Shown: positions 3,642-5,419, numbered from the stretch's first letter. The stretch is DNA of 31,498 nucleotides from Thermoplasmatota archaeon (GCA_030595585.1 JAUVCY010000001.1:1-31498); one strand, 5' to 3'. Numbers and translations are program-made. The notes: generated by a model from the letters alone, not told the origin.

Positions 3642-3983
3642 ATGGACGGTAAAGGACACATGCAGGTCATCGATACCGAGGCACTGGATCGAAACACCCC
3701 GGAGAAATGGACCAACTTCACCCTCTTGAAGGTGAACGATTCACTTGTGAGGATGGGTATATTCGAAGGTGAGTTCCACTGGCATCACCACGATCTGGAG
3801 GATGAGTTCTTCTTCGTGGTGACCGGAAAGCTCCTGCTGGACCTGGAGGATGAGACCATAGAGCTCCTGCCCCATCAGGGTTTCACGGTGCCCAGGGGAG
3901 TGGAGCACAGGACCAGGGCAGAGGAGAGGACCGTCGTACTGATGGTCGAGGGGAACACGGTCAAACCACGGGGGGATCCCTGA
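3642..3983 (+). CDS. Cupin domain protein
   Basis: Cupin motifs GEFHWHHHDLEDEFFFVVTG and GFTVPRGVEH; GGTGA SD at 3633. Confidence 0.9.
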   Translation: MDGKGHMQVIDTEALDRNTPEKWTNFTLLKVNDSLVRMGIFEGEFHWHHHDLEDEFFFVVTGKLLLDLEDETIELLPHQGFTVPRGVEHRTRAEERTVVLMVEGNTVKPRGDP

Positions 3984-4010: not shown

Positions 4011-4260
4011 CGGCCCCCTCCTCACTGTTTAAATAATCGATCAGGCAATGTTTACCATCAGACGGGATGGAAGATAATATTTTTCACCTGATTCATCACG
4101 CATTCAACCTTTCTTCTGATACTCCCGTCATGATGGAGGGGCAGTCCTGTACGCAGGTGTATGTTCCCTCCATCACTCATTATAATATATCTCCTGGGAA
4201 GTTGATAGAATGCAGCATCTCGAACAAACGTGATCTATTTCGGGATCGTAGTGCATGAGG

Positions 4261-4590
4261 TCAATAGCCGAACCTCTTTTCATAATTCTTATGAGACATC
4301 CATTCCAGAACGATTGCAACGATGATGATCTCATCCCTTGCAACGGAATACAATAATCTCCAACCAGTAGGCAGATCATATTTCCATAGATTATCTATGC
4401 CATATTCGTTGATATATTTCTTGGGGATCAATTTTTTTTGGATCTGTATCCCGCAGAAACAATCTTGGGCAATATCATCGAAGGCTTTATTCAACCACAT
4501 ATGTAGTTTTTTCTCATCGCTTCTGGAATCCTCAAGTTCCTTGTATGTTTCAAGGAGCTTGGGGTCGGCGAATACAACCCTGGCTTTCAT
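4261..4590 (-). CDS. RelE/ParE-fold-like small protein, putative type II toxin
   Basis: 109 aa, basic. C-terminal NLWKYDLPTGWRLLYSVARDEIIIVAIVLEWMSHKNY resembles the RelE beta-sheet pattern (xRxGxYRxxYxxxxxxxxxxxxxxHR). AGGTG SD overlaps the upstream stop. Low GC. Confidence 0.65.
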   Translation of the reverse strand: MKARVVFADPKLLETYKELEDSRSDEKKLHMWLNKAFDDIAQDCFCGIQIQKKLIPKKYINEYGIDNLWKYDLPTGWRLLYSVARDEIIIVAIVLEWMSHKNYEKRFGY

Positions 4591-4601
4591 GCAACGCACA
4601 C

Positions 4602-4865
4602 CTATCTGATGGATAGGCTTTCATCCGATAAATATCTCTTGACAAGGTCCGGGTTCCATATCCAGCATATATTCCCTTCACGGTCCCTGGCTATCTTTCC
4701 GGATTCTTCAAGATAATCGAAGACAACGCAATAGGTCTGATACATCATCTTCCTGGGGAGGTCCGTCCATAATGATTTCTTACCAAATTCACCGGAGTGT
4801 TCGCGAATGTGCCTCTCGACCATGAGGACCGTATCCAATCTGGGATAATGAATCACTTTCTGCAT
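4602..4865 (-). CDS. Small winged-HTH-like protein, putative antitoxin/regulator
   Basis: 87 aa from ATG 4865 (GGTGG SD; the ORF-track extension to 4976 crosses the promoter). YPRLDTVLMVE...KKSLWTDL...YQTYCVVFDYLEESGKI..DREGNICWIWNP fits helix-helix-recognition helix-wing. Confidence 0.65.
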   Translation of the reverse strand: MQKVIHYPRLDTVLMVERHIREHSGEFGKKSLWTDLPRKMMYQTYCVVFDYLEESGKIARDREGNICWIWNPDLVKRYLSDESLSIR

Positions 4866-4880
4866 GCTTCCACCAATGGG

Positions 4881-4902
4881 AGTTATATAATAATATATAA
4901 CT
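4881..4902. promoter_or_regulatory. Perfect 9-bp inverted repeat AGTTATATA-ATAA-TATATAACT overlapping the TATA box; candidate operator
   Basis: Read directly from the sequence; lies 16-37 nt upstream of the wHTH gene ATG. Confidence 0.6.
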
Positions 4903-4969
4903 ACATGGATAAAACCTTTTCTATCAGACCAACGGAAATCGAATAATAGTATCGTGAGAATACTCCAAT

Positions 4970-5419
4970 ATGGCACACCTTGAGGTCCGCCACATCGACA
5001 ACCCCGCCGAGCTGGACGACGTGTTCCGGATCCGCCACATCGTCTTCGTGGAAGGACAGGACGTCCCCCCGGACAGGGAGTGGGACGGGCTGGACGAGGA
5101 CGCGGAGCATATCATAGCCTTATCAGACGGCGTCCCCGCCGGCTGCGCCAGGATAAGATTTCCCGGCGGCAAGGCCAAAATTGAGAGGCTGGCAGTTTTA
5201 CCACAATACGAGGAGAGAGGCGTGGGCTCGGCCGTAATGGAGTACCTTGTGGAATACGCCTGGAAGAGGGGCGTCGATGAGATATACCTTCATGCTCAAC
5301 TCACCACCCTCGAGTTCTATTCGAGATTCGGCTTCTCACCGCGGGGAGAGGTGTTCGACGACGCCAACATCGACCACAGAGAGATGTTCCTAATTAAAGA
5401 CAGACAAAACGTTCATTAA
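4970..5419 (+). CDS. GNAT family N-acetyltransferase (ElaA/YjcF-like)
   Basis: IRHIVFVEGQ, KIERLAVLPQYEERGVG (acetyl-CoA motif A), LHAQ...EFYSRFGF...GEVFDDANIDH. Confidence 0.92.
   Translation: MAHLEVRHIDNPAELDDVFRIRHIVFVEGQDVPPDREWDGLDEDAEHIIALSDGVPAGCARIRFPGGKAKIERLAVLPQYEERGVGSAVMEYLVEYAWKRGVDEIYLHAQLTTLEFYSRFGFSPRGEVFDDANIDHREMFLIKDRQNVH

Follow-up and report, generated by a model that had tools for sequence, protein, structure and literature searches.

A putative archaeal type II toxin–antitoxin cassette that joins a RelE/YoeB-type toxin to an antitoxin of an unnamed family

Very few experimental studies have dealt with archaeal toxin–antitoxin (TA) systems, and one partner of the gene pair that we describe is recognised by none of the family libraries searched. 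Several described systems come close to it in one respect or another. The YefM-YoeB and Axe-Txe systems (PF06769; 2a6q, 6l8e, 8yxv) share with our locus the antitoxin-then-toxin gene order, the RelE/ParE fold of the toxin and a palindrome upstream (in our locus a candidate operator), but the partner protein is not of the YefM, Phd or Axe type and matches no known family. RelBE and the aRelE-aRelB pair of Pyrococcus horikoshii (1wmi) are comparable in that an archaeal RelE-superfamily toxin goes together with a small partner encoded upstream, and the toxin model matches the folds of 4fxh, 1wmi and 2khe. In methanogens, RelE has been found paired with MJ1172-like antitoxins, which are predicted to be ribbon-helix-helix (RHH) proteins (Makarova et al. 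2009, PMC2701414). Whereas RelB, aRelB and the MJ1172-like proteins are of the RHH or extended wrapping type, the partner in our locus is predicted to have a helix-helix-helix-hairpin-helix arrangement and shows no sequence relationship to any of them. Finally, the toxins of ParDE and PfiAT/PaaA2-ParE2 (9w3a, 5cw7, 8c24) gave the best Foldseek E-values (PfiT, 5.6e-4), and the Pfam family ParE_toxin matches every member of the toxin family; however, the sequence identities are 10-17%, the TM-scores lie between 0.55 and 0.67, and the antitoxins are unrelated.

The pair lies in a stretch of 31,498 nucleotides from a Thermoplasmatota archaeon, which was analysed as a whole and is referred to as the window (Table 1). 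We propose that it is very probably a type II TA module with a RelE/YoeB-type toxin, residing on a self-contained ~0.7-kb cassette. The initial annotation had noted two small co-oriented genes, an antitoxin gene followed by a toxin gene, with a sharp drop in GC content and with unrelated cupin and GNAT genes as flanks. All of these features were recovered: the reading frames for 87 and 109 aa follow each other on the minus strand with 11 nt in between, both flanking genes have clear Pfam matches, and the GC content of the cassette is 0.423 versus 0.563 for the remaining window. Calculated over 300-nt intervals, it amounts to 0.39-0.45 across positions ~4050-4950 versus 0.50-0.62 on both sides. 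Genes for a rubrerythrin, a DeoC-type aldolase and what is putatively a carbonic anhydrase are found farther upstream. A public contig that encodes an identical 87-aa protein in the same neighbourhood also carries genes for LSM and ribosomal protein L37e, which identifies the host as archaeal. Both reading frames represent real genes and not chance frames, because the median dN/dS values between related copies are low (0.032 for the antitoxin and 0.059 for the toxin), which corresponds to strong purifying selection. Such strong purifying selection on an antitoxin is unusual for a purely selfish module.

Table 1. Features of the toxin–antitoxin locus and its immediate neighbours. Positions are counted from the first nucleotide of the window.
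Feature	Position	Strand	Remarks
Antitoxin gene, 87 aa	4602..4865	-	ATG 4865, stop 4602-4604; from reading of the open frame
Toxin gene, 109 aa	4261..4590	-	ATG 4590, stop 4261-4263; predicted RelE/ParE-superfamily fold
Intergenic spacer, 11 nt	4591-4601	-	Junction AGA TAG GTGTGCGTTGC ATG
Shine-Dalgarno-like AGGTG	4599..4603	-	Overlaps the antitoxin stop codon, 8 nt ahead of the toxin ATG; direct sequence reading
Variable unit, 733 bp	4208..4940	-	Candidate promoter/operator, antitoxin gene, toxin gene and 53-nt 3' tail; from comparison with genome G002
Palindrome	4881..4902	.	Perfect, arms AGTTATATA-N4-TATATAACT (= GTTATATA-N4-TATATAAC); 16 nt upstream of the antitoxin ATG
Cupin_2 flanking gene	3642-3983		Pfam E 1.4e-10
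GNAT acetyltransferase flanking gene	4970-5419		Pfam E 2.2e-17

A RelE-like nature had been ascribed to the second protein from its C-terminal sequence, and structure prediction bears this out. The AF2 model of the toxin, which was built on the family alignment, is confident (pLDDT 85, pTM 0.75) and has the compact alpha/beta architecture of the RelE/ParE fold. A Foldseek search of the PDB with this model gave RelE, ParE, YoeB or HigB toxins at each of the best 50 ranks, mostly with a probability of 0.9-1.0 and with TM-scores (by target) of up to 0.72. At the level of Pfam families, ParE_toxin was matched by 27 of 27 family members (best E 3.9e-5) and YoeB_toxin by 23 of the 27, the latter with the lowest E-value among the members (4.9e-7). 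The toxin of the window itself is assigned to neither PF05016 nor PF06769, as its match to ParE_toxin (E 0.025) scores 15.6 bits against a gathering cut-off of 23, while some of its relatives carry a precomputed PF06769 match. Altogether, 345 toxin relatives (90%-identity clusters) were collected, which are 58-80% identical and nearly all 109 aa long. Many of them have already been labelled Txe/YoeB or RelE by JGI. The term "uncharacterised", which the initial annotation had used for the whole cassette, therefore has to be qualified.

The invariant residues in the toxin family alignment include Q49, W77, R78, Y81, E96, W97, H100 and Y103. In YoeB, Glu46, Arg65, His83 and Tyr84 (E. coli numbering) are reportedly the catalytic residues, an assignment that is said to go back to Kamada and Hanaoka in 2005. 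An alignment of the toxin family profile with YoeB chains, albeit weak (E 0.018), places R78 opposite Arg65 and W69 opposite Trp56, so that the equivalents of these two YoeB residues are conserved in the family. At the position of Glu46, however, there is Lys52, and this lysine is not conserved among divergent relatives; the invariant H100 and Y103 fall outside the aligned stretch. Since the equivalent of Glu46 is a lysine that is not even kept in divergent relatives, the chemistry of the toxin should not be that of YoeB. It also differs from YoeB (84 aa) by its length of 109 aa; the model shows an insertion that forms a helix (57-63) and another helix at the C-terminus (100-107), the latter resembling the C-terminal helix of RelE. 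Taken together, these data place the protein in a distinct subfamily of the RelE/ParE superfamily, and it is not a YoeB in the strict sense. It is most likely an mRNA endonuclease, in which His100 and Tyr103 would, by analogy, have catalytic roles. As a separate observation, five of the related genomes (G006, G008, G020, G034 and G036) encode a second, paralogous toxin subfamily with open frames of ~116-118 aa that are 36-41% identical to the toxin of the window.

It is important to consider whether a TA module of this kind could act on a different target. A ParE-like toxin would poison DNA gyrase or topoisomerase instead of cleaving mRNA on the ribosome, and PfiT (9w3a), ParE2 (5cw7) and ParE1 (8c24) do rank among the best Foldseek matches with scores close to those of RelE and YoeB. 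The universal ParE_toxin match of the 27 members and the missing equivalent of YoeB Glu46 point in the same direction. On the other hand, an arginine at the position of YoeB Arg65 is invariant, as are His100 and Tyr103, and it is YoeB_toxin that gives the lowest E-value among the members. An arginine in combination with a C-terminal His/Tyr pattern is typical of the RNase branch and not of ParE. The conserved Arg, His and Tyr residues would thus suggest the chemistry of an RNase rather than that of a gyrase poison. Moreover, members of the family are frequent in DPANN archaea whose genomes are tiny, and a ribosomal target is universal. A gyrase- or topoisomerase-directed toxin is therefore improbable, and we consider a ribosome-dependent mRNA endonuclease of the RelE/YoeB type to be the probable effector of the module.

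The 87-aa antitoxin gave no meaningful match in Pfam, NCBIfam or PADLOC. A set of 100 diverse relatives yielded no significant match in Pfam, the YefM/Phd type included, and searches of the PDB sequences with profiles of 27 and 100 rows returned chance matches only (E of at least 0.3). All of the 591 close relatives (90%-identity clusters) are annotated as "hypothetical", and an exhaustive profile search retrieved 642 representatives at the 50% cluster level. In the literature searched, no description of the family was found. The antitoxin family is thus new in the sense that it is unnamed in all family libraries searched, and giving it a name would replace hundreds of "hypothetical protein" labels next to genes annotated as YoeB or RelE. 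The toxin, in contrast, is already recognisable to routine annotation. The MJ1172-like antitoxins of methanogens were considered as possible kin and set aside, as their predicted RHH structure makes them a different family.

The predicted secondary structure of the antitoxin comprises helices 10-22 and 38-54, strands 58-60 and 66-68, and a helix 72-79. The AF2 model of the isolated antitoxin, based on a 27-row alignment, is poor (pLDDT 50), and because of this low value the fold searches with it are all weak; winged-helix proteins dominate the resulting lists (wide fold search, Foldseek pdb and Atlas shape search). The Pfam matches that recur among the 100 antitoxins are all below threshold and belong to winged-helix families, namely MC6, SelB-wing, TBPIP, TFIIE-beta and Mnd1. 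In a protein language-model comparison, the nearest neighbours are unnamed archaeal clusters, followed by the winged-helix modules MC6, MC7 and MC8 at 0.85-0.89. A size of 80-100 aa and nearest named language-model neighbours at 0.85-0.89 are what links the antitoxin with the middle components MC6, MC7 and MC8 (PF20293/PF20292/PF20295) of the ABC-3C conflict systems and with the small winged-helix regulators PadR, IclR-N and ScpB, as do the sub-threshold matches to MC6 in 6 of 100 family members. No match to any winged-helix module is significant, however. A winged helix is therefore a plausible but tentative fold for the antitoxin. Hhalign against 29 PadR domains from related genomes gave no sign of kinship with PadR, as the E-value (0.14) equalled that of the toxin used as a control (0.13).

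The antitoxin domain also occurs in other arrangements, either as tandem copies or in fusions, in which it is followed by a region of the nucleotidyltransferase-like (MNT) type, preceded by an RHH-like region or combined with a second HTH (P0292, P0369, P0291, P0244, P0250 and P0256). These tandem and fused forms indicate that the domain behaves as a modular unit. At one locus (L100:2349-3938), a divergent antitoxin (P0382) is followed by a 529-aa protein that has no Pfam family and is not a RelE-like toxin, and the domain may thus pair with other partners as well. Another unusual sequence is P0243, a very long predicted protein (2213 aa) with 19 repeats whose match to the antitoxin profile is confined to the first 25 residues of the latter (H-Y-S-D-L-D-T-V-L...). 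Instead of a real protein, P0243 may represent the translation of a tandem DNA repeat.

Scanning one genome per species for relatives of the toxin yielded 237 loci, 80 of which were kept for adjacency counts. The antitoxin gene adjoins the toxin gene in all 80 of these species-representative loci, and in 79 of them the arrangement is canonical: both genes share a strand, the antitoxin gene immediately precedes the toxin gene, and the matches are 0-62 nt apart. The consistent pairing of the gene for the 109-aa protein with that for the winged-HTH candidate, on which the initial proposal of a TA system depended, is thus evident. Even divergent relatives are still paired: antitoxins of ~40% identity are followed by toxins of 31% identity (hhalign probability 99%). 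The sole non-canonical locus among the 80 (L042:3001-3602) has convergent toxin and antitoxin genes with an overlap of 4 nt.

Prediction of the complex, which had been suggested as a check, passed its controls. The model of the pair scores 0.80, the best of three controls 0.00; of 80 solved complexes, 58 attained this mark, as against 2 of 110 mismatched pairs. At least 98% of the contacts are common to the three runs, with a pLDDT of at least 88 for the partners (89 for the antitoxin in the complex). That the prediction method reproduced a memorised structure is less likely, because the antitoxin has no relative among the PDB sequences. The model supports a direct binding of the antitoxin to the toxin. 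The predicted toxin-binding surface consists of residues 56-87, that is the C-terminal half of the antitoxin, together with a loop (21-26), and the last four antitoxin residues are modelled against toxin residues 5-7 at the start of the first strand. The predicted interface leaves out R78, H100 and Y103 of the toxin.

Upstream of the antitoxin gene there is a palindrome (Table 1) that proved to be conserved far beyond the window. In the 120 nt that precede the antitoxin gene, its 20-bp core, GTTATAYA-N4-TRTATAAC, is present in exact form in 27 of 74 loci, and in 59 of the 74 if one mismatch is allowed. At this stringency, the core is absent from the remaining sequence of these loci (386,676 bases). 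In the window, the core is exact at 4882-4901 and represents the sole match even if up to two mismatches are permitted. A 20-bp palindrome that is retained across phyla beside the gene for a small protein is what one would expect of the binding site for a dimeric repressor encoded adjacently. As the palindrome includes TATA-like words, it is probably a candidate operator that overlaps an archaeal promoter; no description of such a conserved operator was found in the literature searched. At the other end of the antitoxin gene, the position of AGGTG over the stop codon suggests that translation of the toxin is coupled to that of the antitoxin.

From these elements a putative mode of action can be drawn up. 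The antitoxin would be a dimeric DNA-binding protein, probably of the winged-helix type, which could repress the operon by binding to the palindrome and thereby to the overlapping TATA-like promoter. Its wing, C-terminal helix and tail would neutralise the toxin. The latter would be translated by coupling, starting from the AGGTG that overlaps the antitoxin stop, and would act as a ribosome-dependent mRNA endonuclease of the RelE/YoeB type. The biological role of such a module might lie in selfish addiction, in stabilising the locus or in an abortive response to viruses. The pair might serve as a tractable model for an archaeal antitoxin that represses a TATA-box promoter, for the neutralisation of a RelE-type toxin by a partner that is neither RHH nor Phd, and for the movement of recombinase-less minicassettes from phylum to phylum.

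To learn more about the history of the cassette we compared closely related genomes. In the same-genus genome G002 (contig C253), 52 unrelated bp take the place of the 733 bp at positions 4208-4940 of the window, and the flanks are 94-96% identical up to position 4207 and again from 4941. The comparison with close relatives that the initial annotation had called for thus reveals an empty site. A match of any kind was detected in 12 of 41 related genomes, and a full-length close ortholog in none of the three same-genus genomes. One of these, G003, has a contig end inside the antitoxin gene. Among reference genomes, the family is found, among others, in Woesearchaeota, Pacearchaeota, Nanoarchaeota, Methanosarcinales, ANME, Thermoplasmatota, Altiarchaeales and Hadesarchaea. 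The initial statement that similar proteins exist in low-GC archaea of the DPANN type was correct, given their presence in the Woesearchaeota, Pacearchaeota and Nanoarchaeota genomes. A tree calculated for the concatenated pair shows a mixture of host labels, with 22 changes versus a minimum of 8. With an SH-aLRT of 95, the window is placed in a set whose rows come from Thermoplasmatota, Methanosarcinales, Hadesarchaea and Altiarchaeales. Closest to the window are rows of Methanosarcinales, ANME-2 and Thermoplasmatota, but its long branch (0.61) makes its exact place uncertain. All DPANN rows form one clade (SH-aLRT 95), and the window pair is outside of it.

Horizontal acquisition of the cassette, as initially proposed, is supported by the indel relative to the same-genus genome and by the low GC content. 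The second part of that proposal, a direct transfer of the low-GC pair from a DPANN symbiont or an archaeal virus, is not supported. A GC content 14 points lower than that of the surroundings would fit such a donor, as would the abundance of the family in low-GC DPANN genomes. However, the window lies outside the well-supported clade that contains all DPANN rows, and searches of IMG/VR viral contigs, GenBank phages and PLSDB plasmids yielded no relatives. In addition, most hosts show a GC deficit of the cassette relative to its flanks, which amounts to ~4 points on average, and low GC may therefore be a property of the cassette as such and not a mark of the donor. Cassette GC correlates with host GC (r 0.72). 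A DPANN or viral donor is thus improbable. A few copies were noticed in MAGs labelled as bacterial (L016, L038, L039 and L051-L054), with assignments to Opitutales, Chthoniobacterales, Actinomycetes, Phycisphaerae, Sedimentisphaerales and Peribacteria. The flanks of these loci have a GC content of 0.34-0.46, which is low for the labelled Actinomycetes, and L039 adjoins an nSTAND NTPase gene. Pfam analysis of flanking genes at two of the loci was uninformative, and the bacterial-labelled copies may be due either to mis-binning or to a true transfer between domains.

Traces of decay were found in other genomes. In G001, the antitoxin gene is intact and encodes 87 aa with three residue differences from the window, whereas the toxin gene is cut after ~27 codons. 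Internal stops interrupt the toxin copies of G035 (C233:13564-13886) and G020 (C15:54038-54265) (L085 and L086), with two TGA codons in one and one TAG in the other; these copies, which come from genomes of the same class and the same family as that of the window, are probably decaying genes. A loss of the toxin with retention of the antitoxin is the order of decay that is expected if the toxin is harmful and the antitoxin protective. The G001 contig (C34, L093:980-3763) is peculiar in another respect, as the last three-quarters of the toxin gene (equivalent to window positions ~4182-4510) have given way to a low-GC segment of ~3 kb that codes for a multi-pass membrane protein of 927 aa. The interval between the cupin and GNAT genes looks like an insertion hot spot.

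That the pair is no TA module but a conserved two-subunit transcription regulator, with the RelE-fold protein as a non-toxic co-repressor or RNA-binding partner, would agree with the very strong purifying selection on both proteins, their identity of 60-70% across phyla and the conserved operator candidate, yet it is highly improbable in view of the patchy occurrence even within one genus, an indel of exactly cassette size, the decayed toxin beside an intact antitoxin in G001, the toxin pseudogenes in G020 and G035, and flanks that vary by locus with no conserved third gene or regulated neighbour across the loci.

Between the copies of different genomes, DNA similarity mostly covers no more than ~620-740 bp; it sets in 30-100 nt ahead of the antitoxin gene and ceases 0-80 nt after the toxin stop, and the flanks differ between loci. 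The unit is thus a compact block of ~0.7 kb that lacks a recombinase and varies among close relatives, in which it is similar to integron-type or tRNA-anchored TA cassettes. Unlike these, the window locus has no tRNA gene and no boundary repeat; a terminator was not found either. The 76-nt 3' end shows no attC-like fold (z 0.43 versus shuffled sequences), so that neither an attC-like 3' site nor boundary repeats, by which an integron-type cassette is recognised, exist at this locus, and no common 3' motif was detected among 79 loci. Both breakpoints carry the tetranucleotide GAAT (4208-4211 and 4941-4944), which with its 4 nt is too short to be meaningful.

One may speculate, with considerable doubt, that the antitoxin founding an unnamed family, its dedicated RelE-like toxin subfamily and the 20-bp TATA-like operator together form a selfish unit of ~0.7 kb that has spread as cargo of cassette-capture systems, with the recombinase provided in trans. 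If this were true, the built-in promoter/operator would permit expression and autoregulation across archaeal phyla and possibly in a few bacterial MAGs. The family is in any case common, as shown by the 237 loci among species-representative genomes and the 642 representatives of antitoxin clusters, and it is unusually conserved. In one subclade (L025, L038, L040, L055 and L067), the toxin stop is followed by a conserved element of ~80 nt (GATTGCCCC...AGAGAGCC...TGTTTTTGCC) that is missing from the window and from other clades; it might function as a site of recombination, as a terminator or as a small RNA.
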